DNA of 64,000 bases from Somniosus microcephalus. Lineage: Eukaryota. Below the pieces are notes generated by a model. It was given only the letters and a program-made list of their open reading frames with translations. It did no database searches and was not told where the DNA came from. A program made the translations under genes and the position numbers. Location: NCBI GenBank assembly GCA_052327205.1, contig CM126211.1:115382001-115446000 (forward strand), given 5' to 3'. Shown here one piece after another: positions 23,154-47,044 of the stretch. The stretch's first letter is position 1, and every line of letters starts with the position of its first letter.

Positions 23154-24343
23154 CTATTTAAAGGGGACAGCACTAGTATAAAAGCTGCAGCCATTTGGGC
23201 TGGCCATTCTGATCGTTGCCGGAGAGAGTTGCTGACCTTCTGTTGGTGTGGAGATGCCGGAGTTGGACTGTGTCTTTATGCATTTCTCCACTTCACCTGA
23301 CGAAGGAGCAGCGCTCCGAAAGCTTGTGATTTCAAATAAAGCTGTTGGACTATAACCTGACCTTCTGTTGGACAGTAATTTTCTCATTGAGCCTTCGGAG
23401 GCACAGGCACTGGCAGCTTGAGGGCCCGGCTCCCGAGCTGGTGATGCAGCATCTGAAAACAGGGAGGTGCAAGAGTGGCTTTAGCAAAAGGACAGCTTGG
23501 CAGCAAGGGATGCCAGATTGCGGCAAGGTTATGACATGGGTCCACAGTGAGAAAGCATGCTGGCGGGGGGAACAAGTGGAAGGAGACAGTTGCAAAAGGT
23601 GAGAACCTTACCATCGCTGTCGACAATGGGGTCGGCAGCTGCAGTGGTTACAGGACCACTCAGACGTCCTCCAAGAATCTGGTGGACTCTCTCCTCGAGA
23701 TCCGTGAGAGTGACCACTTGTGGAGGTCCTCCACTGGTGCGAAGCTGGTCTTTGCCAATCCTCGCCAGCTTGGACTGCAGGGGAAAGGAGGGGAAGTTAT
23801 GTTACATAATGCCCTGAGTGATCATCTCATGCCCCCCATGGTGGAAGAGCCCTTACATGATGCCCTGAGTGATCATCTCATGCCCCCCATGGTGGAACAG
23901 CCCTTACATGATGCCCTGAGTGATCATCTCATGCCCCCCATGGTGCAAAAGCCCTTACATGACACCTTGAGTCAAATGTGCATGTGTGTGCCCAGAAAGG
24001 GCCATGGGTGCTTGCTGGCAGATGGCCAATGGGGCACAGCCCACCCTGTAGCCATAAAGTCAGGTGCAAATGAAGGGATGCAGAAGTTTGCAGAAACAAC
24101 ACTCACCCTCACGACCCGAGTGAGGTCGTTGAATTTCTTTCTGCATTGGACAGGGCTCCTGGTCACCATGCTGCTGGAGTTGACCCTCTGGCATACATCC
24201 CTCCAAGCTCGTCGGTAGTCCTTATGATTCGGCCTCCTGCCATTGTCTGGGTAGAGAACATCTCGCCGGCGCTCCACTGCGGCCACCAATTGCTCCAGAG
24301 CCTCATTGGTGAAGCGCTCTGCTCTCTGTCTCACCTTCTCCAT
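23154..24343 (-). CDS. Predicted spliced, C-terminally truncated Myb/SANT protein (232 aa) of element E
   Basis: Exons 24343-24107 (237 nt), 23774-23612 (163 nt) and 23452-23154 (299 nt) join into an open frame with canonical GT/AG sites. Expression unknown. Confidence 0.6.
23247..23356 (+). mobile_element. 110-bp Penelope-type terminal-repeat fragment inserted in element E
   Basis: Flanked by a 15-bp direct repeat CTGACCTTCTGTTGG (23232-23246, 23357-23371); absent at the homologous site in D; contains a hammerhead motif and AATAAA. Confidence 0.8.
23293..23329 (+). ncRNA. Minimal type I hammerhead ribozyme motif
   Basis: TCAC-CTGACGA-A-GGAGC-AGC-GCTCC-GAAA-GCTT-GTGA: stem I TCAC/GTGA, intact CUGAnGA and GAAA core, stem II GGAGC/GCTCC, palindromic AAGCTT stem III. 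Confidence 0.8.
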
Positions 24344-25707
24344 CTGGTCCAAATTTTTAGCACCAGAGAAGGGCCTGCGCCGATTCTGAGGCCTGCAAGG
24401 CGCAGAGTGTGGATGCTGAAGCTGACTGACCCACCCCTTTAAGAGCTGGCCGGCGCCTGGAAGTCTCGTGGTCATCGGTAATTGAGAGCACCTGCGCTGC
24501 GCCCGTCCGCTCCGATATTGGGTTGCGCCGGAAGTTTAGCGCCTTAGGAGTCCCGTGTAACGCCTGAATTCGCGCCTCAATCACCTTTAGGGACGATGCA
24601 ACCCAATATCGCGCCAGGTGGCGATAAGTTGCGTCTGGCTATAAACTTTGCGCTGCGCCAATTCTAACGCCCCAAGCGAGGCTATACCCAATTTCTAGGC
24701 CCTAGAGTCTTGTTCCTATACTGCATCCACATTCTTGGAGCAACACTCCTGGCATTGACCTTTGCCGCTACTTTTTTCCGCTACCTCCTGACCATATGTC
24801 TGGAGGGCCTTCTGCCCCCCTGCGGATACAGAACGTCTCTCCTTCTTTTCACCTCTTCCACCAAGACCTGCAGTGTAGTATCTGAAAACCTTGGTCCTTG
24901 CTCTCTCACATGTTCAGCCATTGCTCAAGTATCACAGCACAGATTGACTTTTGAAAAAACTGCCACCATTTCTTGCAGCCACAATGCACCTCCCCTTTTA
25001 GAGGTGCCAGCTGCCTTTAGATAGCACTAACTACTTGCGATATCGGGCCTGTTGCTGATGCGTGCAGCCAATGAACTGCACAGGGAGCGCTGGCTACACG
25101 CAACAATCATTTAAAAGAGCAGAAAGCACCAAAAACACTGCCTGCAACGCACTGAACTGGGTTAATCACTTCCCCCATACTCTTTAAAGCATATGTATGC
25201 ATTCTGGACCTGCAATATTGACACCAAATTTAGGATACTCAGCCATAACTCACATCTTCATGGCTGCAGGCATGAAAGTATCATCACTATGATGTCATTA
25301 GTAAACACACCAGCTGATACCTGGATAGATCATTTTGCATTTGATATCCTAAATTCTCTGCAGGAATCGAGGCGGGCTGGAGGCAGCTGACAGCTTGGTT
25401 TTAAAGATGCAAGATAGAACTTAGTTTGAATGTTGTTATATTTTAAAATATACAAAAGGACTGTTGTAGTTCAGGCTTATTCCCAACACTTTTTCATAGT
25501 TCTCATGTTCCTGGCTAGCCAGCAGTTCCTATAAGCAGACCAACTCCCTTTTGAACCACAAATTGCATCTTTATCCTCCCAACAAAATACAAAAACAGTG
25601 CAGAACAGCAAAACCAACAGAGCTATGATGAGTCCGCAGGAGGTTAATATAGCCGTAGAAGATTCATTTTTCTAACAGTTCCTTTTCAGCAAACTCTTGG
25701 AAATACA

Positions 25708-26819: not shown

Positions 26820-27572
26820 GGGCCAGAAATTTGGGTCAGAGGCTTCCCGCGGGTGCAAGCCCCCGACCTGCACTTAACTTGCGCGCCGGCCGTTGTGCTG
26901 TGGGCCCGCGTGGGATTCCGATCCTGGGCCTGCTCCAACTGCCGGCGTGCAGTGCTTGCGTATCCCAGGGGCGCAGTTAGTTCGAAGCGTCCCCTGGGAT
27001 CACGTGGGCCATGGAGAGCCAATCGTAGCAGGGAATCTCTATTCATAGATTTGACAGGTGTATGAATAGAATTCGGCCCTAAAACATAACGAAAACTTCA
27101 AATAACTTTTGTTTTTAAAAATCACATTTTTAAAATAACTGTAAATTGAATAAAATATCTATTATAAACAATAACTTAAATTTTTGAAAAAATTAATTAC
27201 AGTTTTTAATGGGGCTAAAAATAAACTTACCTTTCTTTAAAGTATTTAAAAATAATAAACCTGTGGAAAAAATGTTTTAATTTTACTTAATTCACCACTT
27301 ACCTTGTTAAAAGCAGGCCTTGCGACTGCTTTTTAAAAGCGTAGCTGCTGGAAACTTACCCTCCTGGAGAAACCTGTAAAAAAAACAGAAGTTCCAGGCG
27401 TACGCGCTGTCTCTCCGGCGCACGCGTTCGACCTGTGAACCCCTTCCTTTAAGGGAACGGAAGTTCAGGTTTCTCACGCATGCGCAGTGCATGCACGAAA
27501 CCGGCACTTTCGTTGGCCCTACGCGTGAGTACCCAGCGCGTACTCACCCGTGGGGACCCGAATTTCTGGCCC
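26820..27572. mobile_element. Harbinger-type MITE with AT-rich core
   Basis: TIRs GGGCCAGAAATT / AATTTCTGGCCC; TSD ATT. Confidence 0.88.
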
Positions 27573-30363: not shown

Positions 30364-31994
30364 GGGGGGAATTTTTTGGGGAGAGTCATCGGGCGTGTTT
30401 GGCGGCTGGTTGGGTGGGAAAAAATGTTTTTTGACAATGGGTCATTATGACCTTGTTAACAGCCCATTATGAAGTATTTTGAGCTCACCTTTACATTTTA
30501 CAAGGTCGTCCACGGGATCCACGCTACTCGGGGATCACGTCAGGAGTTGTATGACCATGGAATCATCTCATTACTTGACAGCTGCAAATGTGCTATAAAA
30601 GCTCCCATCTCACAGTTGTTCACTTTCCTAGCTCAGAAGCTGTTTGATGCTTACTGCATTTGGAAGACAGATTGAGCTGTATGCAGGTTGCATAAAGTAA
30701 ACTCTCTATCCAGTGTCACCTCCTTGGAGCAACCTCTCTCACCAGTGACAGATCGGTCCTGTCATCTCAAGTTCACCTGCCATCTATTACATCAGCATCA
30801 GTGCCCTTGAAACTACCTGAACTTGGTCCTCAGAATCCCACCATGATCAGCCCCAACACCAGCAGCACCAACAACAACGCCAACCTTCTCCGCAATCAAC
30901 TCATGCTGCACAGGACAGAGGGCATCAGTGCCCAACCACTTTGCTGCCTGGGAGGCCAGGGATGGCCTCACCATGGCCAGATTTACTTCACTTGATGCTG
31001 TACACCCTGGCTGCCACATGATGCACCAGGTTGGCACCACCCCACACCAACACCATAAAGCATCTCTACAATGCCCAAGCCATTCCTTTCACACTCATGA
31101 CCATTGCGGGCAGTACCTTTATGTCTCACCATTCACTGTAACTCACTAAGCCACTTCCAAAGGTGCACGCAGATCTGTCCAAGAACGCAAAGTGTTGAAA
31201 ATAAAGGTTTCAATGTTTGACACCACATTAACAGAAACTTTACATGAACATTGCATAAAACACCCAAGTGCCTACCCTTGTTTGTTGTTAGTTGATATGA
31301 TTGGACTAGGATGAGGATTGGTGTGAGGGGTGGCTAGTGAGATGGGGAAGTGATAATGTAGATAGAGAAGGATTGGTGGAGATGCAAGGTAAGTTGGTGT
31401 GAGTAAGGATGTGCAGGAGTAGGGTAGGGAAGGCAGAGTGATGGGGATGTGATGAATGGCATAGCAGGATGAGGTTGAGGTTGAGTGTGGCTTTGAAGTA
31501 ACGTTTCGTGATCTTCTGAGATCATTGAAAGGCTTGCGCCACTGCAGCCTGGTCCTCCTGATGACATCCCTGCTTGTGTCCTCCTGTGCAATGTGCAAAC
31601 AGGCTGCGTTGGCCCTCTGGGGAGATCTCTTCAGCCCATTGGAAGGGAAGAGAACCTTCCTACGTGCTGTGACTCCCTCCATAAGCATATGGAGGGAGTC
31701 ATGAGAGAGCCTGGGTGCAGCCATACATCTCTGTGTAGTGCTTGTCAGTATTTGCAGCACCTCAATGCTGTAGAACACAGACAGCACAACTGTCAAAATC
31801 AATTTGCGCATGGTCCCTTTAAGGAAACCGGCTGATGATGCGTCATCAAATGACGTCATCAGGCCCGTTTCCTTCAATTGGCCGGGAAACGTGCTGGGCG
31901 GGATTAACGAGCCCAATCAGGGGAAAATCATTTGGACAGCGGGATGGAGCCAGCAGCAGGGTTGGGACCCACCGAGGTAGGGGAAATTGCGGCC
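30364..31994 (-). mobile_element. Non-autonomous Harbinger derivative with Myb exon-1 remnant
   Basis: Ends GGGGGGAATTTT / GAAATTGCGGCC; TSD TAT; peptide APRLSHDSLHMLMEGV...VLFP...QWRKPFNDL. Confidence 0.75.
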
Positions 31995-32204
31995 TATTTG
32001 TTTACTCAAAGTACAAAACATAGGTGCCATGTTGGGGCAGCAAGGGAACCAATTGCAATGCATCCCACTCTGAAGGACATCCCTTTTGCTCCACCCAGGG
32101 TGAGTTCAGTGTTGCTCATCACTGATCATCACCAGCAAGCCAGCCAGAAACTGGATTGTGGAAGTTAGGGTTTAAGCTGCTATCCTTGAATGCTCCCTTT
32201 CAGA

Positions 32205-32545
32205 AGTATAGAAGTTAACAGCATAGAAGGAGGCCATTCGGTCAATTGAGTCTGTGCTGGCCCTTTGCCAGAACAATCCAAAACTAATTCCACTGCGTTG
32301 CTCTCTTACCATAACCCTGTATGGTGCTTCAAATAAGTACCATACAGGGTGCTTATCTGCTTCAAATATTTATCCAGTTTTCCCTTAAAAGATGCAGTGG
32401 TCTCTGCCTCAACTATTCCCTGAGTCAAAGCATGCCATAATCCAACAATCCTCTGAGTAAAATAATTTCTCCAAAACTTTCTTCTTGTTCTCTTAGTGAC
32501 AGTTTTAAATTGATGACCCACTTCACTGACTCTCCAACTACAGGA
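32205..32545 (-). mobile_element. CR1 LINE 3' fragment
   Basis: GHQFK...RNYFTQRIVGLWHALTQGIVEAETTASFKGKLDKYL peptide plus CR1-type 3' UTR. Confidence 0.8.
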
Positions 32546-32969
32546 CTTAGACCTAAAAATTTGATTGCGACACAAAGGCTGCCGGCGCCACCACGGCCGC
32601 GGGTTAACGACCACCGAAAATGGTGGCAATAGTAGGAATGAAAAATTTGCGCTGAGGACTAATGATTATTAGCCCAGTGCTCAACTGACCATGTAACGCA
32701 CTCCTGGTGGCGTTCATCAAGCCCCAATGTTGCACCCAGAAGCGGTTTTGCAGCTTCGCTCATCCTCTGAAAATGAGGCTGTGATTTCACAAAGCATTGA
32801 GGGATATTAAAAGGGAAATGTCTTGTGTTCTTAAAAGGGCAATGCCTTCTGTAATGATAAAAAATAAAAATGATGTAAAAATATGCAGTTTTCAGCTCAA
32901 CTGCCTTCTGCAAAAAAATTAACATTTGAAAAAAAAATTCCTAATGGGAGTCATAGAGTCATAGTCATA

Positions 32970-33665
32970 GGGGGAAAAATTGGGTGAGTAGCGCCACCTG
33001 TTAGCGCCTAAAGAGGCAGTCAGTGGCTGTAGCGCCACTGGCTGCGCCTCCCGCGATATTCAGCAGGGGCGGTAATGGTGGCGCTAGCCTTTAGCGCTGC
33101 GCCGCCACCGATGACGTCATCGGTGTGCGCAGCGCCCCATTCGCGATATTTGGTAGCGAACGGCGCCGTTCGCTACCCGCACCCGGTTCACGGGGCCTTG
33201 CTATGCCGGCAGAGGCGCAAGTTAAGGTGGAGGTGCGGGGCGGCCGCTTTTTTGGCGGCCGCCTGCCAGCACCTCTGTCCCCGGCCTCCTGGTCCCCCCC
33301 CGCCCCCCGCGGCATTTCCGGCTGTTTCCCGAGAGCCCGGCACTTCTCCTTGGTGCCGGGCTCTTTTGCCAGCACTCGCGATCGGGGCTCGTGCTTTTGC
33401 AGGCCCCTCCCCCTTAACAGTGGGAGGAAGGCCTGCAGTACCGCAGCGTGCCGTGCCGCAGCGTGTGGCGCTGCGGCACGTAGCGCTGCGAAATTCACTT
33501 TCAGCGCCCTAAGAGGGACGCGGAGCGCCTCGAGCCGCGCCCCGTCTCCCTCTAGGGGCACTTCAACTGAATTTGCGGCGATTGCTAATGCGGCGATCAC
33601 GGCACAAATTCCAGCGCCCAGGCGAACTTTGCGCCGCTTGGGCGCCTCAGGCCAATTTCTAGGCC
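32970..33665 (-). mobile_element. Harbinger MITE (M1) in the CR1 tail
   Basis: Ends GGGGGAAAAATTGG / CCAATTTCTAGGCC; TSD ATA. Confidence 0.92.
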
Positions 33666-33676
33666 ATAGAGTCATA

Positions 33677-35713
33677 GGCCTAGAAATTGGGTTGGTAGCG
33701 CCGGAGCTGAGCGCCTAAAGAGACCTAGAATTGGGGCGAAGCCCGATGTTGGGGCGGACGCTATGAAGATAGCGCCGACTCAGAAATTGACTATACATTT
33801 AGCGCCTGCGCTAAGTGTTTGCGCGCGCCCGCGCTAAGTGTTTGCGCGCGCCCGCGAGCGCAAGCAGCTCATGACGTCATTTCAGTGTGCAACGCCTTTT
33901 AGGAGCGCCTGAGCGCATATTGGGTGGCGCCCGGAGCCTTAGCACCCAGCGCTATTAGTGACAGTTTGAGGGAGGGCTAACAGGCCCTTCTCAGAGTAGG
34001 GGGGCGCTATTTAAAGGGGACAGCTTCAGTGCAGAATCTTCTGCCACTTGGCCTGCTCATTGCGCTCGTTGCCAGTGAGAGTTGGCGAGCTAATGTGGAG
34101 CGGAGTTCTGGGATTTGAGCTTTACAGTACTTGCTACCTTCAACCCTGTCCGAAGCACTTGCACCACTACACCTAAAAGCCTTTTGACCAACTGGCATCG
34201 GAATGGGAGCTTGTTTGGAGGGCGACGGACCTCATCTGCACTCTGTGCAGCAGTCATGACGACCTGCCTTGCCCTGCGGGGAGACGGTGGCCGAACTTGC
34301 CTATCCCCCCTGCGTTGCTCCATGCCGCTTGGTCCGGCAACTGGTTCATCCTCAGAGCCAACCCCCCTCCCCTCCAGGGGACTACTATCCCTCGTCTGCA
34401 GATGTCTCCGCTCCCCGGATTCTGCAATGGCTGGTCCGGATTCCTCCTGGTCCTCGCCTCCGGTGGCACTGGCACTGGCAGCTTCAGCGCGTTGAGCCCA
34501 AGTTGGTGCTGCTTCATCTGAAAGTGGGAGGTGGAAGAGTGGCTTTAGCAAAAGGACAGGTTTGCTGAAAGGCATGCCAGATTGCGGCAAGGCTCTGACA
34601 TGGCTGCACACTGAGGATGCATGCTGGCGGGGGGACCAAGTGGAAGGCAACAGGTGGAAAAGGTGAGAGTCTTACCCTCGCTGTCGGTAATGGGGTCGGC
34701 AGATGCAGTGGTCACTGGACCAGACAGACGTCCTCCAAGTATCTGGTGCACTCTCTCCTCCAGATCCGTGAGAGTGACCACTTGTGCAGGTCCACCACCG
34801 GTTCGACGCTGCTCCTTTCTAATCTGTGCCATCTTGGACTGCAGGGGAAAGAAGGGGAGGTTCTGTTACATGAGGCCTTGAGACCTCATCGCATGCCCCC
34901 CATGGTGCAAGAGCCCTTATATGAGGCCTTGAGACCTCATCGCATGCCCCCATGGTGCAAGAGCCCTTACATGAGGCCTTGAGACATCTGTCCATGTGTG
35001 TGGCCAGAAAGGGCCATGGGTGCATACTGACAGATGGCCATTGGCGCATCATTGCAGCAGGGTGCCCGAAGTCAGCTGCAGATGGAAGGAATCACAAGTT
35101 TGGTAAACCATCACTCACCCTAACGATCCGTGTGAGGTCGTTGAATTTCTTCCTGCACTGAACAGGGGTCCTGGTCGCCATGCTGCTGGAATTCACCCTC
35201 ACAGCAACCTCCCTCCAAGATCGTCGATAAGCCTTCTGATTTGGCCTCTTGCCATTATCCGGATACAGGACCTCTCGACGGTGTTCAACTGCAGCCACCA
35301 AGTGGTCCAGAGCCTCAGTGCTGAAGCGCTCTGCTCTCTGCCTAACCTTCTCCATAATGCACAAGTTTCTAACGCCAGACAAGGGCGAGCGCCGAATCTG
35401 AGGCCTACAGGGCGTTGGGTGTTGAAGCTCAGTCTGACTGACCCGCCCCTTTAAGAGCCGGCCGGCGCCTGTAGGTCTCGTGCTTTCCCGTAATTGAGTT
35501 CACCTGCGCTGCGCCCGTCCGCGTCGATATTGAGTAGCGCCTGACCTTTTGCACCTTAAGAGCACTGTGCAATGGCTGATTTAGCGCCTCAATCCCCTTT
35601 GGGGGCGATGCAACCCAATATCGCGCCAGGCGGCGATAAGTTTCGTCTGGCTATAAACTTTGCGCATCACCAGTTCTAACGCCTCAAGCGGGGCTATACC
35701 CAATTTCTAGGCC
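33677..35713 (+). mobile_element. Internally deleted Harbinger (element B), transposase reduced to its first codons
   Basis: TIRs GGCCTAGAAATTGGG / CCCAATTTCTAGGCC; TSD ATA; arms homologous to D and E; junction at ~34225. Confidence 0.92.
34090..35355 (-). CDS. Predicted spliced, C-terminally truncated Myb/SANT protein (275 aa) of element B
   Basis: Exons 35355-35119 (237 nt), 34838-34676 (163 nt) and 34517-34090 (428 nt) form an open frame with GT/AG sites. Expression unknown. Confidence 0.6.
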
Positions 35714-35724
35714 ATAGAGTCATA

Positions 35725-36431
35725 GGCCTAGAAATTGGCCTGAGGCACCCAAGCGGCGCAAAGGTCGCCTGGGCGCTGGAATTTGCGCCGCGATCACCGC
35801 ATTAGCGATCGCCGCAAATTCAGTTGAAATGCCCCTAGAGGGAGACGGGGCGCGGCTCGAGGTGCTCCGCGTCCCTCTTAGGGCGCTGAAAGTGAATTTC
35901 GCAGCGCTATGTGCCGCAGCGCCACACGCTGCGGCACGGCACGCTGCGGTACTGCAGGCCTTCCTCCCACTGTTAAGGGGGAGGGGCCTGCAACAGCGCG
36001 AGCCCCGCTCGCGAGTGCCGGCAGAAGAGCCCGGCACCGAGGAGAAGTGCCGGGCTCTCGGGAAACAGCCGGCATTGCCGCGGGGGGGGGACCAGGAGGC
36101 CGGGATGGAGGTGCTGGCAGGCGGCCGCCAAAAAAGCGGCCGCCCCGCACCTCCACCTTAACTTGCGCCTCTGCCGGCGCAGCAAGGCCCCGTGAACTGG
36201 GCGCAGGTAGCGAACGGCGCTACAGCGGTGTTCGCTACCAAATATCGCGATCGGGGCTGAATGGGGCGCTGCGCACACTGATGACATCATCGGTGGCGGC
36301 ACAGCGCTAAAGGCTAACGCCACCATTAACGCCCCTGCTTAATATCGCGGGAGGCGCAGCCAGTGGCGCTACAGCCACTGACTGCCTCTTTAGGCGCTAA
36401 CAGGTGGCGCTACTCACCCAATTTTTCCCCC
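35725..36431 (+). mobile_element. Harbinger MITE (M2), inverted non-identical paralog of M1
   Basis: Ends GGCCTAGAAATTGG / CCAATTTTTCCCCC; TSD ATA. Confidence 0.92.
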
Positions 36432-39400
36432 ATAGAGTTATACAGCACAGAAAGAGGCCCTTCGGCCCATCGCGTCTGCGCCGGCCATCAAGCCTTGTCT
36501 AATCTAATCCCATTTTCCAGCATTTGGTCCGTAGCCTTGTATGGTATGGCGTTTCAAGTGCTCATCCAAATGATTCTTGAATGTTGTGAGGGTTCCTGCC
36601 TCTACCACCCTTTCAGGCAGTGAGTTCCAGATTCCAACCACCCTCTGGGTGAAAAAGTTCTTCCTCAAATCCCCTCTAAACCCCCTGCCCCTTACCTTGA
36701 AACTATGCCCCCTGGTTATTGACCCCTCTACTAAGGGGAAACGTTCCTTTCTATCTACCCTATCTATGCCTCTCATAATTTTGTACACCTCAATCAGGTC
36801 CCCCCTCAGCCTTCTCTGCTCCAAGGAAAACAACCCCAGCCTGTCCAGTCTTTCTTCATAGCGGAAGTGCTCCAGCCCAGGTAACATCCTGGTGAATCTC
36901 CTCTGCACCCTCTCCAAAGCAATCACATCCTTCCTATAGTGTGGCGACCAGAACGGCACACAGTACTCCAGCTGTGGCCTAACCAGCGTTTTGTACAGCT
37001 CCATCATAACCTCCCTGCTCTTATATTCTATGCCTCGGCTAATGAAGGCAAGTATCCCATATGCCTTTTTAACCACCTTATCCACCTGTTCTGCTGCCTT
37101 CGGGGATCTATGTACATGCACACCAAGGACCCTCTGATCCTCTGTCTTTCCTAGGATCTTACCATTCATTGTGTATTCCCTTGCCTTGTTAGTCCCTCCA
37201 AAATGCATCACCTCACACTTTTCAGGGTTAAATTCCATTTGCCACTGTTCTGCCCATCTGACCAACCCATCTATATCGTCCTGCAGACTGAGGCTACCCT
37301 CCTCGCTATTTACCACTCCACCATTTTTTGTGTCATCTGCGAACTTACTGATCATACCTTTTACATTCACATCCAAGTCATTAATGTAGACCACAAACAG
37401 CAAGGGACCCAGCACCGATCCCTGCGGTACCCCACTGGACACAGGCTTCCAGTCACAAAAACAACCTTCGACCATCAACCTCTGCTTTCTGCCACTAAGC
37501 CAGTTTTGGATCCAATGTGCCAAGGCACCCTGGATCCCATGGCCTCTTACCTTCTTGACCAGTCTCCTATGCGGGACTTTATCGAAAGCCTTACTGAAAT
37601 CCATGTATACCACATCCACTGCACTACCCTCATCCACACACCTAGTCACCCCCTCGAAAAATTCAATCAAATTGGTCAGACATGGTCTTCCCTTGACAAA
37701 GCCATGCTGATTACCCCTGATTAATCCTTGCCTCTCGAAGTGGAGACTAATTCTGTCCCTCAGAATTTTTTCCAATAATTTCCCTACCACTGATGTTAGG
37801 CTCACTGGCCTGTAATTCCCTGGTTTATCCCTACTACCCTTCTTGAATAATGGTACTACGTTAGCTGTTCTCCAGTCCTCTGGCACCTCCCCTGTGGCCA
37901 GAGAGGTTCTGAAAATTTGTGTCAGAGCCCCTGCAATCTCCTCCTTTGCCTCACACAGCCGCCTGTGATACATCTCGTCCGGGCCTGGGGATTTATCCAC
38001 TTTTAAGCCTGCTAAAACTGCTAGTACCTCCTCCCTCTCGATGCTAATATGTTCAAGTATATCACAGTCCCCCTGCCCAATTTCTTTGTCTACATCGTCC
38101 TTCTCCATAGTGAACACAGATGCAAAAAATTCATTTAAAACCCCACCTACATCTTCTGGCTCCACACACAGATTGCCACTTTGGTCCCTAATGGGCCCTA
38201 CTCTTTCCCTAGTTATCCTCTTACCCTTAATATGCTTATAATAAAACACCTTAGGATTTTCCTTTATTTTGCTCACCAGTGTTATTTCATGGCCCCTCCT
38301 CGCACTCCTAATTTCTTTTTTAAGTATCCCCCTGCACTTTTTATACTCCTCTAGGGCTTCCTCTGTCTTTAGTCCTTTGTATCTGCCAAAAGCCCCCCTT
38401 TTTTCCCTAACCCATCCTCGTATATCCCTTGACATCCAAGGTTCCCTGGGCTTGTTGGTCCCACCCTTGACCTTTACGGGAACATGTTGCCATGGTACTC
38501 TCTCAATTTCCTTTCTGAAAGACTCCCATTGCTCCGATGTGGATTTTCCTACAAGTAGCTGATCCCAGTCCACTTTGGCCAGATCCTGCCTTATCATATT
38601 AAAGTCGGCCTTCCCCCAATTTAGAACCTTTATTTCCGGTCCATCTCTGTCCTTTCCCATGACTACCTTAAATCTCACCGAATTATGGTCACTGTCACCA
38701 AAGTGCTCACCTACTAACACTTCTACCACTTGCCCGGCCACATTCCCTAGAATTAGGTCCAGTACCGCCCCCTCTCTTGTAGGACTTTCTACATGCTGGC
38801 TCAAAAAGCTCTCCTGGATGCACTTTAAGAATTCTGCACCCTCTAAGCCTTTCACACTCTGACTAGCCCAGTTAATATTGGGGAAGTTGAAATCCCCCAC
38901 TATTATTACCCTATTATTTGCACATTTCTCTGAGATTTGCCTACATATCTGTTCCTCTATCTCCCCCTGACTGTTTGGGGGCCTATAGTACACTCCCAGC
39001 AAAGTGCTTGCCCCCTTTTTGTTTTTAAGTTCTACCCATATGGCCTCATTAGAGGAACCTGTTAATATATCATCCCTCCTTACAGCAGTAATTGACTCCT
39101 TAATTAATATTGCGACACCCCCTCCTCTTTTACCCCCCCCTCTGTCTCGCCTGAAGATTCTATACCCCGGAATATTGAGCTGCCAGTCTTGCCCCTCCCT
39201 CAACCATGTCTCCGTGATAGCAACAATATCATACTCCCATGTGTTCATCAACACCTTCAGTTCATCCACCTTATTCGCAAGACTCCTTGCATTAAAATAA
39301 ATGCCATCCAGCCTTGCCCTACTCCCTTGTGCCGTTACATATTTGCTCTGCCTTCCAAGCTGACTTGTTTTTTCCTCTATATTTGGTTGTACATCACCCC

Positions 39401-39452
39401 CTATTATAGCTCCACTCTGCATCCCATCCCCCTGCCATGTTAGTTGAAACTG
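36432..39452 (-). mobile_element. 5'-truncated CR1 LINE; its (ATAGAGTC)n tail extends, interrupted, to ~32948
   Basis: Full ORF2, short 3' UTR and 8-bp tail repeat; truncated just upstream of ORF2. Confidence 0.95.
36504..39422 (-). CDS. CR1 ORF2 (APE endonuclease-reverse transcriptase), open 972 aa
   Basis: Endonuclease motifs NARSL, ITETW, YRPP, GDFN and SDH; RT motifs GVPQGSVLGP and FADD; WNSLP C-terminus. Confidence 0.93.
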   Translation of the reverse strand: MQSGAIIGGDVQPNIEEKTSQLGRQSKYVTAQGSRARLDGIYFNARSLANKVDELKVLMNTWEYDIVAITETWLREGQDWQLNIPGYRIFRRDRGGGKRGGGVAILIKESITAVRRDDILTGSSNEAIWVELKNKKGASTLLGVYYRPPNSQGEIEEQICRQISEKCANNRVIIVGDFNFPNINWASQSVKGLEGAEFLKCIQESFLSQHVESPTREGAVLDLILGNVAGQVVEVLVGEHFGDSDHNSVRFKVVMGKDRDGPEIKVLNWGKADFNMIRQDLAKVDWDQLLVGKSTSEQWESFRKEIERVPWQHVPVKVKGGTNKPREPWMSRDIRGWVREKRGAFGRYKGLKTEEALEEYKKCRGILKKEIRSARRGHEITLVSKIKENPKVFYYKHIKGKRITRERVGPIRDQSGNLCVEPEDVGGVLNEFFASVFTMEKDDVDKEIGQGDCDILEHISIEREEVLAVLAGLKVDKSPGPDEMYHRRLCEAKEEIAGALTQIFRTSLATGEVPEDWRTANVVPLFKKGSRDKPGNYRPVSLTSVVGKLLEKILRDRISLHFERQGLIRGNQHGFVKGRPCLTNLIEFFEGVTRCVDEGSAVDVVYMDFSKAFDKVPHRRLVKKVRGHGIQGALAHWIQNWLSGRKQRLMVEGCFCDWKPVSSGVPQGSVLGPLLFVVYINDLDVNVKGMISKFADDTKNGGVVNSEEGSLSLQDDIDGLVRWAEQWQMEFNPEKCEVMHFGGTNKAREYTMNGKILGKTEDQRVLGVHVHRSPKAAEQVDKVVKKAYGILAFISRGIEYKSREVMMELYKTLVRPQLEYCVPFWSPHYRKDVIALERVQRRFTRMLPGLEHFRYEERLDRLGLFSLEQRRLRGDLIEVYKIMRGIDRVDRKERFPLVEGSITRGHSFKVRGRGFRGDLRKNFFTQRVVGIWNSLPERVVEAGTLTTFKNHLDEHLKRHTIQGYGPNAGKWD

Positions 39453-41348
39453 AATTCCCTGTTAAAGCTGAATTCCTTTCCGCACCCAGGAAAATGGGAA
39501 AAGTGCTTCAGCACTAACACAAAAGGCTCAGCAAGTCAGGAAAGGGGCACCCAGGGTCTTGCACACAGCACTCCAGCTTTGTGCAGGGGGTCAACACTGC
39601 AAGAGAGGTCCTCTACCCACAGGGGCCAGCAGGCCCTCCAGAAAGAACGATGTGGGACCAAATCACCGAGGCTGTCACTGCCAGCAGTGTCAGTACTGAA
39701 CTCAGCGCTAAGGTCAAAGTTCGCAGAGCGTGACTTTAAGGCGGCATGGCACACTGACTGACGTCAGTCTCTGCCTATTTGCATCTCCAGGGTCAGCGCT
39801 GCTATTGGCAACGCTAAGGCCCTCACCAAAATGGCGGCCATCGAGTCCCGCGCCAGAGAAGGGCTTTAGAATGTCGGCCGCCATTTATCGCCAGGTTAGC
39901 AGCGCAAACAGGTGGCGCTAAAGTTGGGAATTTCTAGGCCTATATAGGATATCATGGATTGAGTGGTATGGCTTACATTTTTAATTTCTATAAGTGGGTT
40001 GCCATAATAGCTTACAAATGACAGCTATAGGTGAACATTGATCAGCTCCTCAAATAGAAATAAGCATCATATGCTGTACCACTGCACGTGTTGTTATTCC
40101 TTTTCTTTCTACATATATGTGTAATTGGGTGTTCTTTAGTCTGTTGGAAATTACTGAAAAAACATTATTTGTTTGTCAGTGAATTTGTGCAACCTCTGAG
40201 AAAAGAAAGGTGTATTACTGTGAAGTACCCAGAAAAAAAAGCATACAGGGTGGAGGGACTAATTATGGAATGAGACATGAACAATAGAGTAACAGTGGAG
40301 GAATTGTCCAATGGAAGTACAGCTTCTAATGTCAAGGGCATAGATGAGAAGAGAAAAAAGTAGTGTGAAAAGCATTATAAATAACTGATGTTAGATTGGA
40401 GAAATTGCCTCAAAGAATGAAGCTTGTTTACAAACTTTATTTTGATTTTTTTATGGTGCTAGATTAAGGCAATGGAGCCAAAGTAAGAAGAAAAATCATT
40501 TGGTTTTTTTCTTGGTGGATCAGGACATGTTTGAAGGGTAAAGGTCTTTTATATTTTGTACTTTTCATACATGTATTTGTAGAAGATTTTTTTGGTCCCT
40601 CGATATTCTATTCAAATTGGAAAGATAGACACAGCAAAAGCCAAGTACCATCAGTGACAATTGCATTTTCCTGACAAGGTGATTGAACAGTTGGGCCTAG
40701 AAATTCAGTTCTTAGCGCCAGCCGCTAGCGCCTTAGGAGGAGGAGAAGTGGGGCGCTAAGTGGCTAGCGCCCGGGCGCGGCGCGATCTGCGCCTCTCGCG
40801 AACTTCACTCAAGAGTTAGCAGCGGCACAAAACCGCAGCGCCCGCTCAGCTGCGCGCGCAGATCCTGACGTCATTTCATGGTGCAACGCCCTTGGTGCGC
40901 CCCGAACCGGAACTTCAGTGGCGCCGCCCTTCTGTGCGCCTGGCACCCCCAGCGACTGGTAGAGGGGAACGGTTCCCAGTCGCTACGGGGTGCGGGGGAC
41001 GCTATTTAAAGGGGACTCCTCTTGCATTATAAGTGGCAGCCGTTTTGTGCCAATCCTGTGTGAGAGATGGATACTTGGAGAGAGACAAAGGGAGAGAGAG
41101 CGCTTTCTGCTTTGACTCAGCACTCGCACAGGCACTTCTGGCTTCAGGCCAGAGCTTTGCACTTGGATTTAACTTTTAGTGCCATAGCCTTGAGTCACCA
41201 CATGTAATGGGGGCTGCAATGGGTGGAAACGTTGGCTTACTGCATTGCATTCAAAGGGCTCAGAGACGCCGTGAGAGAGTGCCAGTCATGGCCAGACGGA
41301 GAAGGGCCAATAGGTGTCGGCACAGGAGACCTTACCCACCCAGGGTAT

Positions 41349-41578
41349 TGTGGTAAACCACTGTATTGTATATTGCCACCTCTGGGTGGCGCTGTGTATG
41401 GAGGCATGCCTCAGCTGACTCCACCCACCACTGTGTGGGTTTCGTTCAGACTTGTTCAGTCACTCACGAAGAAGCATGGTCTCTTCTTAGCTAATAAAAG
41501 CCTTATTCATCTCTTCTTTCGACTCGTCATCTCTTCTTCGACTCATCACCTTTTATGAAGTAATTGATAAGCGTATCA
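41349..41578 (+). repeat. Gypsy-1 5' LTR
   Basis: Identical by eye to 45473-45702; contains AATAAA. Confidence 0.95.
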
Positions 41579-41599
41579 ATTTTATTAGCTAAAAGTTAA

Positions 41600-44500
41600 A
41601 TGGCGACACCTGAGGAGCAACAACAGCAACGGATACAGCAGACATTGCTGAGAGCCCTCAGACCACCACGCCTGGACCTCGACCCTCAAGAGGTGGGTGC
41701 ATCAGCCAAGTTTGAACACTGGCTGAGCTGCTTTGAATCCTTCCTCGCAATCTCACAGGTTACAGAGGAGGATCACAAACTGAAAATTTTGACCGCCCAG
41801 GTGAGCCATCAAGTATATATGCTAATCCGGGACTCTAATACGTACGTGGCGGCCCTCGAGCTACTAAAAGGGCAATATACGCGCCCAGTGAACACAATTT
41901 ACGCCCGACACCTCTTGGGATCCCGCAGGCAGCAACCGGGAGAATCGGTAGGGGCATTTGCACGGGCGCTACTGGCACTCTGCAGAGACTGCGATTGTAA
42001 AGCGGTAACGGCTGTGGAGCACGCGCAGGGACTCGCCTGTGATGCCTTCGTCAGGGGCCTCCAGTCAGACCACACCCGGCAGAGACTGCTAGAAAGCAAG
42101 GAACCCGACCTGAAGACGGCCATTGCCCTTGCGCTCTCGTTAGAGGAGGCCCACCGAAACCTCGAGGCATACCCCCGTAACGGCGCCGAGACATGGCAAT
42201 CGAAACCGTGGGACACGGGACCGCCGCCCCCGGCACCAACCGCTGCAGCGACCCAACCGAGACAGCAGCCTCCGGTAAGAACTGCTTCGATGCCCAGTAA
42301 CCAGGCCCAAAAATGCTATTTCTGTGGCCAGTTAAAACATCCCAGAGCGCACTGCCCAGCTAAGACAGCTACCTGCTCGGGCTGCGGGAAGAAAGGCCAT
42401 TACGCTAACGCCTGCAAGGGGAAGCCAGCCAGCAGCGCAGCGTGCGGGCCGTGGGAGCAGCCATCTTATCCGCCATTTTGTGTACCCCCGGCCGCATGGC
42501 ATCCGCCGCCATCGTATCCAACGCACTCAACCGCCATTTCGTCACCGGAACCGACCACCGTCTCGGCGGATGACTATAGTGACTCACTAAGCCACATACT
42601 GGCCTCCGTGACGCTGGATCAAGCCCTCCCTCACCATCTATCCAGCTCCATGATGGATATCGCGGTAAACGGCCGCGCCACCAGTTGCCTGATCGACAGC
42701 GGGAGCACAGAGAGTTTCGTCCACCCCGACACGGTACGTAGCCACTCCCTCACGATTCTGCCAACGCACCATCGCATTTCTATGGCGTCCAAGTCCCAGT
42801 CAATGGACATCAGCGGCTACTGTGTGGTGACCCTGTCAGTAGGGGGCACTGAATATAAAAAATTTAAACTGCTAGTCCTGCCCCGTCTTTGCGCTGCCGT
42901 CCTGCTAGGGTTGGATTTTCAGTGCCACCTTAAGAGTGTCACACTAGCATACGGTGGACCCCTCCCCCCACTCACAGTCTGCAACCAACAACTTTTAAAT
43001 CGCCCGCTGCAAACCACCTGCAGCCTTTCCACATTAAAAGTCCCCCCCCCTCCCCTGTTCGCTAACCTCACCCGCGACTGTAAACCCATCGCTACCAAAA
43101 GCAGGCGGTACAGTGCCGGGGACAGAGCTTTTATCAGCTCTGAGGTGGAGCGGCTATTGAAGGAGGGCATTATCGAAGGTAGCACTAGCCCCTGGCGAGC
43201 CCAGGTTGTAGTCGTTAAAACCACTGCAAAACGCCGCATGGTAATCGACTACAGCCAAACCATAAACCGGTACACCCAGCTGGACGCGTACCCCCTCCCT
43301 CGCATATCTGATATGGTCAATCAGATTGCGCAATACAAAGTATTCTCCACCATCGACCTTAAGTCAGCGTACCACCAGCTGCCCATCCGCCATGAGGACC
43401 GCCAGTATACTGCCTTCGAGGCAAACGGCCGCCTCTACCACTTCCTTAGGGTCCCCTTCGGCGTCACCAACGGGGTTTCGGTCTTCCAAAGGGAGATGGA
43501 CCGAATGGTTGACCAGAACGCGCTGCGGGCAACCTTCCCCTATTTGGATAACGTCACCATCTGCGGCCACGACCAGCAGGACCACGACGTTAATCTAGCA
43601 AATTTCCTCTGTACGGCCCAACGGCTGAACCTAACGTACAATAAGGAAAAATGTATGTTTCACACCAAGCGCCTGGCCATCCTCGGCTGCGTGGTGGAGA
43701 ACGGAGTCATCGGGCCCGACCCCGACAGAATGCGCCCCCTAATGGAGCTACCCCTTCCCCACTGCCAAAAAGCACTGAAGAGATGCCTGGGGTTTTTCTC
43801 CTACTACGCCCAGTGGGTGCCCCTCTATGCAGACAAAGCCAGGCCCCTCATCAAAGCCACCTCCTTCCCCCTGACACCAGAGGCGTGTGCAGCCTTCACT
43901 CTTATCAAGAACGATATCGCGAAGGCCGCAATGCACGCGGTGGATGAGTCCATCCCCTTCCAAGTGGAGAGCGATGCCTCCGACTTCGCCCTAGCCGCGA
44001 CCCTTAACCAGGCGGGCAGACCCGTGGCCTTTTTCTCAAGGACCCTCCAGGGCCCCGAGACGAGACACTCCTCCGTCGAAAAGGAGGCCCAGGCTATTGT
44101 AGAAGCGATGCGTCACTGGAGGCATTACCTGGCCGGGAAACGATTTACCCTGCTCACTGACCAGCATTCAGTAGCTTTTATGTTTAATAATAAGCAGAGG
44201 GGTAAAATCAAGAACGACAAGATCTTGAGGTGGAGAATCGAACTCTCCACCTACAATTATGATATCTTGTATCGGCCAGGGAAACTCAATGAGCCCCCAG
44301 ATGCCCTATCACGTGGTACATGCGCCAACGCGCAGAGTGATAGGCTGCAGTCCCTCCACAATGACCTCTGCCACCCGGGGGTCACCAGGTTTTTCCATTT
44401 TATCAAATCCCGTAACCTGCCCTACTCCATCGAGGAGGTCAGGACCATGACCAAGAGCTGCCAAATCTGCGCCGAGTGCAAACCGCACTTCTATAGGCCG

Positions 44501-45430
44501 GACAGAGCAAGCCTGATCAAGGCCACCCGCCCCTTCGAACGCCTGAGCGTCGATTTTAAAGGGCCCCTCCCCTCCGCTGACCGCAATGTGTACTTCCTCA
44601 ACATAGTTGATGAGTACTCCCGTTTCCCCTTTGCCATCCCTTGCCCAGACATGACCAGTACCACGGTCATCAAGTGTCTGAATGACATCTTCGCTCTGTT
44701 CGGGTTCCCCAGCTATATACATAGCGACAGGGGCTCATCGTTCATGAGCGACGAACTTCGGCAGTACCTGCTAACAAGAGGTATCGCCACGAGCAGGACC
44801 ACCAGTTACAACCCCCGGGGGAACGGCCAGGTGGAAAGGGAGAACGCGACGGTTTGGAAGGCAGTCCTCTTAGCACTAAAATCTAAGGGCCTTCCGACCT
44901 CCCGCTGGCAGGAGGTCCTCCCTGCAGCGCTCCACTCCATTCGGTCACTGCTTTGTACTGCCACTAATGCGACCCCTCATGAGAAAATGTTCGTTTTCCC
45001 CCGGAAGTCTACATCGGGAACCTCGCTACCGGCATGGTTGACTTCTCCTGGGCCCGTCCTACTGCGGAGGCACGTGAGGACGCATAAAACGGACCCCCTG
45101 GTCGAGCGGGTGCACCTCCTACACGCCAACCCCCAGTATGCCTGGGTGACATACCCAGACGGGCGGGAGGACACGGTCTCCATACGAGATCTCACACCCT
45201 CGGGTACCCCTGAATTACCACCGTTATCCCCCTTACCACCGTTATCCCCCTTACCACTGTTATCCCCCACCACCCCTCCCAACCCAACCCCTGCAGACGG
45301 CATGCCAAAGCCCCAGGAATCTTCGCCAACCACCCAGACACCAGACCCGACGTCGGATGCTGCAACACCACCGCCGCCACCACGACGATCAGGACGTCAG
45401 ACAAGGCCTCCTGATAGACTTAACTTGTAG
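41600..45430 (+). CDS. Intact Gag-Pol polyprotein (1276 aa)
   Basis: Two CCHC knuckles, protease IDSGS, RT (IDLKSAYHQ, PFG, YLDN), RNase H ESDAS, integrase HHCC and D,D,E; domain order PR-RT-RH-IN. Confidence 0.96.
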   Translation: MATPEEQQQQRIQQTLLRALRPPRLDLDPQEVGASAKFEHWLSCFESFLAISQVTEEDHKLKILTAQVSHQVYMLIRDSNTYVAALELLKGQYTRPVNTIYARHLLGSRRQQPGESVGAFARALLALCRDCDCKAVTAVEHAQGLACDAFVRGLQSDHTRQRLLESKEPDLKTAIALALSLEEAHRNLEAYPRNGAETWQSKPWDTGPPPPAPTAAATQPRQQPPVRTASMPSNQAQKCYFCGQLKHPRAHCPAKTATCSGCGKKGHYANACKGKPASSAACGPWEQPSYPPFCVPPAAWHPPPSYPTHSTAISSPEPTTVSADDYSDSLSHILASVTLDQALPHHLSSSMMDIAVNGRATSCLIDSGSTESFVHPDTVRSHSLTILPTHHRISMASKSQSMDISGYCVVTLSVGGTEYKKFKLLVLPRLCAAVLLGLDFQCHLKSVTLAYGGPLPPLTVCNQQLLNRPLQTTCSLSTLKVPPPPLFANLTRDCKPIATKSRRYSAGDRAFISSEVERLLKEGIIEGSTSPWRAQVVVVKTTAKRRMVIDYSQTINRYTQLDAYPLPRISDMVNQIAQYKVFSTIDLKSAYHQLPIRHEDRQYTAFEANGRLYHFLRVPFGVTNGVSVFQREMDRMVDQNALRATFPYLDNVTICGHDQQDHDVNLANFLCTAQRLNLTYNKEKCMFHTKRLAILGCVVENGVIGPDPDRMRPLMELPLPHCQKALKRCLGFFSYYAQWVPLYADKARPLIKATSFPLTPEACAAFTLIKNDIAKAAMHAVDESIPFQVESDASDFALAATLNQAGRPVAFFSRTLQGPETRHSSVEKEAQAIVEAMRHWRHYLAGKRFTLLTDQHSVAFMFNNKQRGKIKNDKILRWRIELSTYNYDILYRPGKLNEPPDALSRGTCANAQSDRLQSLHNDLCHPGVTRFFHFIKSRNLPYSIEEVRTMTKSCQICAECKPHFYRPDRASLIKATRPFERLSVDFKGPLPSADRNVYFLNIVDEYSRFPFAIPCPDMTSTTVIKCLNDIFALFGFPSYIHSDRGSSFMSDELRQYLLTRGIATSRTTSYNPRGNGQVERENATVWKAVLLALKSKGLPTSRWQEVLPAALHSIRSLLCTATNATPHEKMFVFPRKSTSGTSLPAWLTSPGPVLLRRHVRTHKTDPLVERVHLLHANPQYAWVTYPDGREDTVSIRDLTPSGTPELPPLSPLPPLSPLPLLSPTTPPNPTPADGMPKPQESSPTTQTPDPTSDAATPPPPPRRSGRQTRPPDRLNL

Positions 45431-45472
45431 TACCCTTCACCCCGCCGGACTTCACATTAAACAAGGGGTGAA

Positions 45473-45702
45473 TGTGGTAAACCACTGTATTGTATATTGC
45501 CACCTCTGGGTGGCGCTGTGTATGGAGGCATGCCTCAGCTGACTCCACCCACCACTGTGTGGGTTTCGTTCAGACTTGTTCAGTCACTCACGAAGAAGCA
45601 TGGTCTCTTCTTAGCTAATAAAAGCCTTATTCATCTCTTCTTTCGACTCGTCATCTCTTCTTCGACTCATCACCTTTTATGAAGTAATTGATAAGCGTAT
45701 CA
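45473..45702 (+). repeat. Gypsy-1 3' LTR
   Basis: Follows the PPT and precedes the TSD GGTAT. Confidence 0.95.
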
Positions 45703-47044
45703 GGTATATCGCCAGCAGTTCTCATATCTGAACATGTCTGAGGAGCAGTGTGTTCGGAGGCTGCGATTCAGAAGGGAGGTGGTCACTGAGATCTGCCACC
45801 TGCTTCACAGAGATCTGCAGCCACAGCTGAGGAGCAGGACGTCTCTGTCGGTGGCAGTGAAGGTGATGGTGGCTCTCAACTTCTATGCCACTGGCTCCTT
45901 CCAATCCGCTACTGGGGACATTGCCAACATCTCCCAGTTTGCGGTACATTACTGCATCCGCCAGGTGACCAATGCCCTTTTCAGAAGGAGATGTCAGTAC
46001 ATCTCCTTCCCCATGACCCTGGACAAGTAGCAAGAGCGTGCAATGGGATTTGGAGGAATAGCGGGCTTCCCCATGGTCCAGGCGCCATTAACTGCACGCA
46101 TGTGGTTTTGTGGGCACCTCTAGAGAATGCCAAGGATTACCACAACCGGAAGGGCTACCATTCGCTCAACGTCCAGTTCGTGTGTGACCACAGGCAGCTC
46201 ATACTAGCTGTCAATGCCCGCTTTCCAGGCAGCAGCCACGATGCCTTCATCCTGCGCCAGACTTCTGTGCCAGACATTTTCGAAGCCCAGGCTCACCCAC
46301 GAGGATGGCTTCTCAGGGACAAAGGCTATCCTTTGTGCACCTGGCTGATGACCCCGCTCCGTGCGCCCAGCACCCCTGCTGAAGAGCGATACAATGACAG
46401 CCATCAAGCTACCAGGAACATCATTGAGCACACAATCAGCGTGCTTAAGCAACGGTTCCGCTGTCTGGACTGTTCCGGAGGAGCCCTACAGTACTCACCT
46501 GAGCGAGTCTCCCATTTCGTGGTAGTGTGCTGCATGCTGCACAACCTGGCTATCCTCAGGACTCAGCCACTGCCAGCAGACATTGGAGGACCACCAGAGG
46601 AGGAGGAGGAGCACCAAGGTGGGAGGGAGGCACAAAGTGCAAGGGCCGTCCATCGGCGGCTTATTGCACCTCGGTTCTAGGCCCCCTCTCAGGGAATGGC
46701 TTGTGCCAATGAAAGAACATGAATGGAGCCACTCCACAAGCCCTCAGCCAATCAAGGCAACAAATAGTTCAAAGTGCAAACATGGACAATGTGATTAAAG
46801 AAAAATTTTTACTGTGCAAACTCTGTGCCTTTCCCGCATGACAAACTAATTCAGAAAACCCCCCAAAAAACAGTCAGAGACATAACTGGCTCTCACAACC
46901 TTCAGAAAATGAAAAAAACAGTTAAACAAAAATGACCATTGTCCTCGGCCTTCATATAAAAAACAAACACAACAATCTCGGCCTTCATATATAAAAAAAC
47001 CATTCTCGGCCTTCATATATAAACACAACATTTGGCCACACCTT

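Follow-up and report, generated by a model that had tools for sequence, protein, structure and literature searches.

Harbinger transposons in consecutive units of CR1 tails: a LINE microsatellite as a favoured row of insertion targets in a shark genome

Introduction

How do three DNA transposons come to stand in three consecutive 8-bp units of a single LINE tail? Such a locus lies in the 64-kb stretch of Somniosus microcephalus DNA analysed here (the window), and an earlier note had read it as a train of Harbinger elements that inserted independently, each with a duplicated target site (TSD) of 3 bp, into the tail of a CR1. We consider this reading at the locus and genome-wide.

Results

The locus is laid out exactly as had been described, with three elements on three consecutive ATA sites between positions 32948 and 36446 and a separate TSD for each: GAGTC ATA GAGTC ATA GTC ATA is followed by M1, ATAGAGTCATA, B, ATAGAGTCATA, M2, ATA GAGTT ATACAGC and a minus-strand LINE (Table 1). 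The final ATA of the distal tail units (32967–32969) is the left TSD of M1. The two linkers have the same orientation, as the earlier note stated, and the block is thus not a single palindrome. M1 and M2 are 95.5% identical, which is the typical level for their MITE family. B carries GGCCTAGAAATT at either end and is 77% identical over 1.55 kb to a transposase-bearing element at 18296–22835, the transposase part of which has no counterpart in B. Related elements of the window contain 51–54-bp counterparts of the 50-bp tandem repeat in B. The junction hairpin does fold (−16.8 kcal/mol, z −8.6), but as the trivial result of two facing terminal inverted repeats (TIRs), and a functional structure was dropped in favour of such a by-product. 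An 11-bp TSD mechanism was also ruled out, as distal flanks often read TTA/TTG/ACA-GAGTC ATA and the linkers begin with ATA.

Table 1. Features of the three-element train and the adjoining LINE (positions in the window)
Feature	Position	Strand	Remarks
Distal CR1 tail units GAGTC ATA GAGTC ATA GTC ATA	32948..32969	+	Sequence
M1, 696-bp non-autonomous Harbinger MITE	32970..33665	+	Unlike ends GGGGGAAAAATT / AATTTCTAGGCC
Linker 1, ATA GAGTC ATA	33666..33676	+	M1 right TSD, shared 5-bp half-site, B left TSD
B, 2,037-bp Harbinger deletion derivative	33677..35713	-	Myb-like gene region kept, transposase region gone
50-bp tandem repeat in B, 2.4 copies	34866..34985	.	Sequence
B exon coding Myb/SANT-like (trihelix)	35092..35358	-	PF13873 E 2.7e-10, PF13837
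Linker 2, ATA GAGTC ATA	35714..35724	+	Orientation as linker 1
M2, 707-bp MITE of the M1 family	35725..36431	-	Inverted relative to M1
Right TSD ATA and CR1-proximal half-site GAGTT ATACAGC ('site 1', ATAC subfamily)	36432..36446	+	
CR1-type LINE 3' end (UTR)	36435..36503	-	Sequence; recurs beside other junctions
LINE ORF2, open 985-aa frame	36504..39461	-	PF00078 E 5.8e-33, PF03372, PF14529

The three elements are placed in PIF/Harbinger by short TIRs with a 3-bp TSD (matching in 14 of 18 paired elements), by the preference for an extended palindromic target, and by the Myb/SANT-like gene (PF13873 in B) and DDE_Tnp_4 transposase of autonomous relatives. The related element at 18296–22835 matches PF13359 (E 6.5e-29) and PF04827, on the opposite strand and with an in-frame stop. 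The LINE, which we take to be a CR1 from its tail and motifs, has an ORF2 with AP endonuclease and reverse transcriptase domains, a feature common to other LINE clades, and a 3' octamer microsatellite tail with the LINE-strand unit ACTCTATG. This unit is close to the avian CR1 tail unit ATTCTRTG (PMC8665684). For PIF/Harbinger elements, the part of the literature available to us also reports footprint-free excision (PMC2836001).

The arrangement is not confined to this locus. Its exact junction has 104 copies genome-wide, and TIR-ATAGAGTCATA-TIR junctions number 297 when TIR variants are included, with no genome-wide match to the reversed-pattern controls; the junction layout is not due to chance. 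Trains of three to four elements are found, which agrees with the cassette-like arrays proposed earlier. A LINE 3' end of CR1 type flanks 20 of the 24 junctions with a complete right-hand element, and the remainder are flanked by another linker (three) or lie elsewhere (one). The first tail site is filled in 742 of 10,034 and 1,518 of 13,771 cases, counted as exact matches to patterns of unequal length, and this occupancy of 7–11%, ~5,000–7,000 times the uniform expectation, bears out the proposed enrichment in CR1 tails. At least 28 end types occur in tails, in both orientations, and the commonest MITE there is divided 20:25 and 21:23 between the two. To call the tails a 'landing pad', as had been done, overstates their part, since they are a favoured target for only a minority of elements: ~2,760 occupy the first two tail sites, ~3% of ~96,000, and ~97% are inserted outside tails. 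Only 5 of 29 close M1 copies lie in tails, and the elements are thus not strictly target-specific in the manner of Dada or R1/R2, with most copies in one multicopy target. The further description of the pad as 'renewable' is right only insofar as new tails continue to come from CR1 and an insertion leaves the adjoining units in place; of the creation of units by insertion there is no sign.

A target matrix built from 74 de-duplicated non-tail ends, all of GGCC type, supports the extended near-palindromic target that the earlier note had suggested. The half-site is approximately A-R-A-c-W-C|NNN (A 45, A 60, A 49 and C 49 out of 74 at positions −9, −7, −5 and −4), and the 3-bp TSD is often ATA/TAT (17/74). 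By matrix score, tail sites rank in the top 0.005–0.02% of 198,680 positions, and the predicted tail enrichment of 2,500–13,000-fold is of the same order as that observed. As a generic, non-tail matrix predicts the right order of enrichment, LINE-specific adaptation is unnecessary. The contrast between sites 1 and 2 across subfamilies was predicted at 4.3 and observed at 3.9, and tails with a GAAAC core are occupied ~10-fold less than the others (39/6,556). Against the matrix, GAATC tails are predicted five-fold under GAGTC tails, yet occupancy is equal (181/2,607, or 6.9%, and 497/7,966), and the occupancy of ATAC tails is under-predicted (2–5%, with 11–13.5% seen).

The 5-bp core fits the half-site on both strands, read as GAGTC or as GACTC, and a single core is thus a right half-site for one ATA and a left one for the ATA that follows. 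With a core serving two neighbouring ATAs, the 8-bp period becomes a row of overlapping targets, and since duplication of the ATA does not disrupt the following target, adjacent insertions are separated by an 11-bp linker. The transposase/Myb complex would read the tail targets directly, as reported for other PIF/Harbingers, and GANTC units would be expected to be preferred among the unit repeats at issue, namely (ATAGAGTC)n, (ATAGAAAC)n and shuffled ones. Among the first 50 close pairs listed, counted by eye, all 18 of the 11-bp linkers carry GAGTC, and none of the linkers is 5–10 or 12 bp long. A separate class with 3-bp linkers accounts for 12 of these 50 pairs. We consider it quite likely that the three Harbingers inserted independently, as the earlier note held, since the tail units fit their palindromic target, and that a short-range bias favours the neighbouring unit.

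Two features had gone unremarked in the earlier note, the excess filling of adjacent units and near-identical direct-copy arrays (locus L217). In young (TTAC) tails, an occupied first site has a filled neighbour in 10 of 25 cases against 55 of 4,698 (1.2%), and in older (ATAC) tails in 8 of 11 against 442 of 3,268 (13.5%), giving odds ratios of 56 and 17. These counts are split by subfamily because the pooled comparison (42% vs 6%) mixes ages. Filling above the rates for independence means that independent insertion alone fails, and only part of the clustering is covered by the age of the CR1s together with local hops or duplications. Age as the sole cause of the doublets was rejected, with no significant divergence difference in two comparisons and a 1.4-fold difference in one; it explains part. 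More tentatively, several causes may combine in the excess: uneven CR1 exposure, local hops or duplications in tandem, and a bias at the level of the locus, either because a flank is open or because a resident end recruits.

Resident-end recruitment would be target immunity turned round: a Harbinger end in place would draw the transpososomes of any related family to the closest good target. We regard this possibility as somewhat doubtful. The resident end might be bound by the Myb-like protein or might open chromatin, and either effect would add to the sequence preference. The neighbour odds ratios argue for it, as do sequence samples in which 7 of 27 and 6 of 22 insertions at the first site have a filled neighbour, and genome-wide the number of facing-end pairs drops with distance, from 567 (0–30 bp) through 191 (40–70 bp) to 65 (300–330 bp), where 13–19 would be uniform. 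Among 19 adjacent MITE pairs, 7 are <80% alike and hence not copies of each other. Occupied young CR1s are just ~1.4 times older than empty ones (private differences 0.48% vs 0.35%; p 0.045 in a binomial and 0.23 in a rank test), and the CR1 side of occupied tails has no extra ends in 45 kb, although as a search for hot regions at the kilobase scale, with 3 ends in 181 kb round empty tails, this comparison has low power. Recruitment also gains from the binding of a Myb-like protein to TIRs and transposase, as described in the available portions of two reports (PMC2836001, PMC9179366). On the other hand, a previously accessible patch, or a CR1 subset exposed in bursts, would give the same pattern; one ATAC sub-subfamily makes up 16 of 27 empty but 2–3 of 25 occupied tails; and the window is itself Harbinger-dense, with 13 ends against 6 in 199 kb. 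The sub-subfamily skew between empty and occupied tails is seen in ATAC only. Perhaps, then, Harbinger ends attract further insertions in trans and LINE tails seed self-extending mixed-family cassettes and later satellites, but we would not expect this on balance.

It is improbable that the main origin of the trains is local hopping, or unequal exchange at ATAGAGT by which an element and its linker are duplicated in tandem. At the present locus M1 and M2 are inverted, non-adjacent and no more alike than is normal for the family, B is a different element, and M2 is absent from the best 40 matches of M1. Elsewhere, 25 of 39 junctions pair elements that are <83% alike or without a match, and at L005, L010, L016 and L027 neighbours resemble dispersed copies at least as much as they resemble one another. 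Some loci do fit duplication: L217 has four direct copies with 3–6 differences per 698 bases, the best copy compared elsewhere being ~90% identical, and L012 (98.7%) and L223 (a 4.5-kb direct pair, 97–98%) are similar. Of the 19 pairs of adjacent MITEs, 6 (four loci, three of the pairs from L217) reach ≥96.5% identity, against 23 of 3,544 random tail pairs. Judging by such near-identity, direct arrays of the L217 kind are likely to come from tandem duplication.

Retrotransposition of a CR1 that carries Harbingers along in its tail, or movement of the three-part block as a composite DNA transposon, is very unlikely, and both are largely refuted. L227 and L228 have a MITE (97%) and a long element (98%) in common, arranged in one order within unrelated flanks, as co-movement would predict. 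Against this stand the variety and both orientations of the end types in tails, the TSD of its own at every member rather than at the outer ends of a block recurring at many loci, the CR1 3' end on the right-hand side in 20 of 24 cases where moved composites would be expected mostly outside tails, and the solo state of all 29 close complete M1 copies, none with neighbours.

Assembled contigs from three samples of two studies mapped on 31800–34800 include none across the train and list no empty allele; the X16 contig at 32869–32978 extends just 9 bases into M1, where the bridging rule asks for 31. An assembly artefact, to which the lack of a spanning read at the train would lend itself, is nonetheless hardly credible given that M1 is 4.5% divergent from M2 with indels besides, that all TSDs are correct and that ~300 analogous junctions of mixed composition exist.

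Discussion

The CR1-tail trains are a novel form of a known phenomenon, target-driven tandem insertion. The earlier note knew of no prior description; tandem build-up by target preference has been described for other elements in the part of McGurk and Barbash (2018; PMC5932611) available to us. There, P element, hobo and R1 dimers likewise proceed from target preference through adjacent copies to arrays; L217 parallels the hobo array, and the shark 3-bp-linker pairs match the same-site dimers. The P, hobo and R1 dimers however use one site with one shared TSD, as in double insertions of P-element type, whereas in the main class of the shark an 11-bp linker with two TSDs joins consecutive sites 8 bp apart, within the tail of another element and with families mixed.

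Three further systems invite comparison, as far as the accessible sections of the cited accounts go. Zebrafish Harbinger3_DR shares the 3-bp TSD, a transposase plus a Myb-like gene and a ~15-bp palindromic target (AAACAC-NNN-GTCTTT-like), and its target consensus AAACACCWGGTCTTT is similar to the shark matrix (PMC3016246, PMC2836001). The shark TSD differs in being mostly W-rich and not CWG, the preference is looser, and the LINE tail offers a periodic row of targets. Tourist MITE multimers of rice and maize (PMC5172404), from the same superfamily, are adjacent or nested by independent insertion, but they insert into MITEs, with insertion into LINEs and other elements reported as low, where the shark target is a LINE tail. 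Dada (PMC3706591, PMC8869645), also a DNA transposon, likewise gathers in multicopy sites, the small-RNA genes, but is strictly target-specific.

The shark genome shows at full scale how the tail of one mobile element can turn, by sequence fit alone, into a periodic row of targets for members of an unrelated superfamily. This amounts to a natural experiment with >20,000 near-identical targets of known occupancy, one-base subfamily variants and ~300 doublets, and the tail set allows direct measurement of how Harbingers recognise their targets and of insertion cooperativity. Nested tail insertions also give the relative order of CR1 subfamilies and Harbinger bursts. The GAATC unit, which is occupied too, is the standard CR1 octamer of amniotes, and the same trains are therefore to be expected in other vertebrates with both elements. 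Recruitment by resident ends, if true, would bear on Harbinger-based gene tools and on the start of TE-derived satellites.

Results

We find that the layout claimed in the earlier note, three Harbinger elements in consecutive 8-bp units of a CR1 tail with linkers of the same orientation, is borne out by the window sequence. The middle member, B, aligns over 1.55 kb at 77% identity with the element at 18296-22835, which carries a transposase (PF13359). The ORF2 of the adjoining LINE is wholly open despite the three interruptions of its tail. In the MITEs M1 and M2, as at many other loci, the termini differ between the two ends (GGGGG/GGCC, GGGC/GGCC), which suggests tolerance for mismatched TIR tips, or inter-family chimeras. 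A second train lies at 18296-24701; to its right stands CTA GAGTC, with no CR1 3′ end of the usual kind after it. For the additional elements of the window, 3-bp TSDs match wherever both ends were checked.

Harbinger and CR1 features of the window, and the L217 array elsewhere in the genome
Feature	Position	Strand	Remarks
CR1 tail units	32948-32969		
M1	32970-33665		
Linker ATAGAGTCATA	between M1 and B		
B	33677-35713		Myb/SANT exon kept (PF13873)
Second linker ATAGAGTCATA	between B and M2		orientation identical to first linker
M2	35725-36431		inverted relative to M1; identity 95.5%
ATA GAGTT ATACAGC	directly after M2, before LINE		
CR1-type LINE ORF2	36504-39461	minus	open 985-aa APE+RT frame
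Second train, left member			4,540-bp Harbinger; stop breaks transposase frame; Myb-like gene on opposite strand
Second train, linker ATAGAATCATA	between 4,540-bp and 1,855-bp members		
Second train, right member			1,855-bp derivative; 90% alike to the 4,540-bp Harbinger; direct orientation
Additional Harbinger-type ends/elements	860-1653, 2383-3091, 26821-27572, 39940 (right end only), 40694-49253		
L217	G000:C9:196146254-196147702 and beyond		four direct copies of 698-bp MITE, 99.1-99.6% identical; 11-bp linkers; CR1 tail

The train is real and recurrent. Counting junctions (TIR, 11-bp linker, TIR), as the earlier note had proposed, gave 104 exact copies in the genome searched (G000, 6.45 Gb) and 297 with TIR variants allowed, against none for reversed-pattern controls, and trains of three to four elements are present at, for example, L213-L219 (loci chosen for multiple junctions or long members). 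A search with the 16-base end pattern yields 192,098 matches, which corresponds to about 96,000 elements (control about 1,000). Site 1, which adjoins the CR1 body, is filled in 742 and empty in 9,292 of the young TTAC tails (7.4%), filled in 1,518 and empty in 12,253 of the older ATAC tails (11.0%), and in a further 497 tails site 2 is filled with site 1 empty, all counts here being exact-match lower bounds from patterns of unequal length. A uniform insertion rate is 1.5e-5 per base; the first two tail sites combined hold about 2.9% of Harbinger elements.

A target matrix was built from ends listed first on contig C1, most of them retrieved, skipping those already known in tails; 82 flanks, minus 3 tail-like and 5 near-duplicate, left 74 non-tail ends. 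These gave an extended half-site, approximately A-R-A-c-W-C at -9 to -4, with ATA/TAT as the TSD in 17 of 74. The Harbinger3_DR consensus AAACACCWGGTCTTT, as given in PMC3016246, resembles this target, and extended target preference and footprint-free excision are described as superfamily traits in PMC2836001. The core fits the half-site whichever strand is read, as GAGTC or as GACTC; given the 8-bp period, every tail ATA is a complete target, with cores common to neighbouring sites, and the 11-bp linker is one core flanked by two TSDs.

The matrix gives tail sites a score of 2,500-13,000x background, from which an occupancy of 2-20% is expected; this is of the right order, yet too low for ATAC tails. 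For TTAC tails, the one-base subfamily difference is predicted to enrich site 1 relative to site 2 by 4.3x, and the observed contrast, (742/55)/(1,518/442), is 3.9. The non-palindromic GAAAC core, predicted to be avoided, is filled in 39 cases and empty in 6,517 (0.6%, against 6.2% for GAGTC), the empty count being somewhat inflated by an approximately 2-kb (ATAGAAAC)n-like array at G000:C1:16162326-16164201. Contrary to the matrix, GAATC units are 6.9% filled (181 vs 2,426) where a 5x lower value was predicted; many of these insertions have CCCCC-type ends, a type outside the matrix sample.

Facing ends cluster genome-wide: with gaps of 0-30 there are 567 pairs, falling to 191 for 40-70 and to 65 for 300-330, where uniform expectation is 13-19, part of the distant pairs sitting in minisatellites. 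By eye, the first 50 of the 567 close pairs have linkers of 3 bp (12), 4 bp (1), 11 bp (18, each built on a GAGTC core) and 13-29 bp (19), and none of 5-10 or 12 bp. About a quarter (12 of these 50) have a single common 3-bp TSD, like same-site double-insertion dimers. Minisatellites whose units contain target-like half-sites (L070-L076; G000:C1:347.95-347.98 Mb, 223.43 Mb) carry several Harbinger insertions, spaced by dozens to hundreds of bases; tandem repeats besides CR1 tails thus gather insertions too.

Discussion

Target preference alone does not account for the clustering of neighbours. Among tails listed on contig C1 with site 1 filled and the next unit intact, the next unit is filled in 10/25 TTAC (of 82 listed) and 8/11 ATAC (of 100 listed), against 55/4,698 and 442/3,268 when site 1 is empty (odds ratios 56 and 17). 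Sequence samples show a filled neighbour in 7/27 TTAC and 6/22 ATAC tails (counted by eye, the distal end being visible in 49/71 rows).

Three partial causes can be named. Adjacent elements may be local copies: identity reaches 96.5% or more in 6/19 adjacent MITE pairs, against 23/3,544 random tail pairs, and in L217, likely a nascent TE-derived tandem array, copies differ at 3-6 of 698 bases; 7/19 adjacent pairs, however, are less than 80% alike. CR1 copies may also have been unevenly exposed, as one ATAC sub-subfamily makes up 16/27 empty but 2-3/25 occupied tails and private differences are 0.48% in occupied and 0.35% in empty TTAC copies (22 and 24 copies), although this divergence difference has p 0.045 pooled but 0.23 by rank. 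At the window itself the neighbourhood is Harbinger-dense, with 13 ends in 64 kb, whereas the surroundings of 20 empty tails have 6 in 199 kb, and GGCC-type ends are about 7x denser than in the flanks of empty tails. As 7/19 pairs are so dissimilar and the effect is largest in young tails, a locus-level bias is left over, reflecting either a flank that is accessible or a resident end that recruits newcomers.

A composite transposon or LINE cargo is largely ruled out by varied end types (28 multi-member and 37 singleton), both orientations of the commonest tail MITE (20:25 and 21:23, in a sample enriched for junction loci) and solo M1 copies. The earlier note's refuting case, the same three-part block at many loci, did not materialise: each of the 29 complete copies closest to M1, taken from the 40 best-scored among 2,529 candidates, stands alone; most have TSDs that match, 5/29 lie in tail-like sites, and their 95-97% identity to M1 is comparable to that of M2, which is absent from those 40. 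The right-hand element is complete in 24/39 junctions, followed by the CR1 3′ end (20), another linker (3) or other sequence (1). As an exception, L227 (G000:C2:282.16 Mb) and L228 (298.34 Mb) carry the same MITE (97%) and 4.4-4.5-kb element (98%) in identical order; the two CR1 tails are different and their distal flanks unrelated, which hints at rare block copying or transposition, or possibly templated repair between tails.

The suggestion of a renewable landing pad holds in part. Renewal comes through fresh CR1 copies and, according to the literature, precise excision. At least two full units occur in 12/30 TTAC and 6/30 ATAC empty tails and, doublets counted, in about 18/27 and 6-7/22 occupied ones; this fits use of pre-existing units, though numbers this small are compatible with some creation.

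The closest known cases include tandem dimers driven by target choice and able to expand into arrays (PMC5932611), Tourist MITE multimers (review PMC5172404) and Harbinger target preference itself. The CR1 octamer is given as ATTCTRTG in PMC8665684. The portions available of PMC9179366 and PMC13343379 make no mention of tail targeting, and the former reports that Harbinger was not found in elephant shark; among the papers listed by searches of openly available full text, no title or abstract opening describes Harbinger trains in CR1 tails. In conclusion, the train is mostly accounted for by a mechanism already known, here working on a substrate that is unusual in being periodic, and the strong neighbour effect is its most interesting part.
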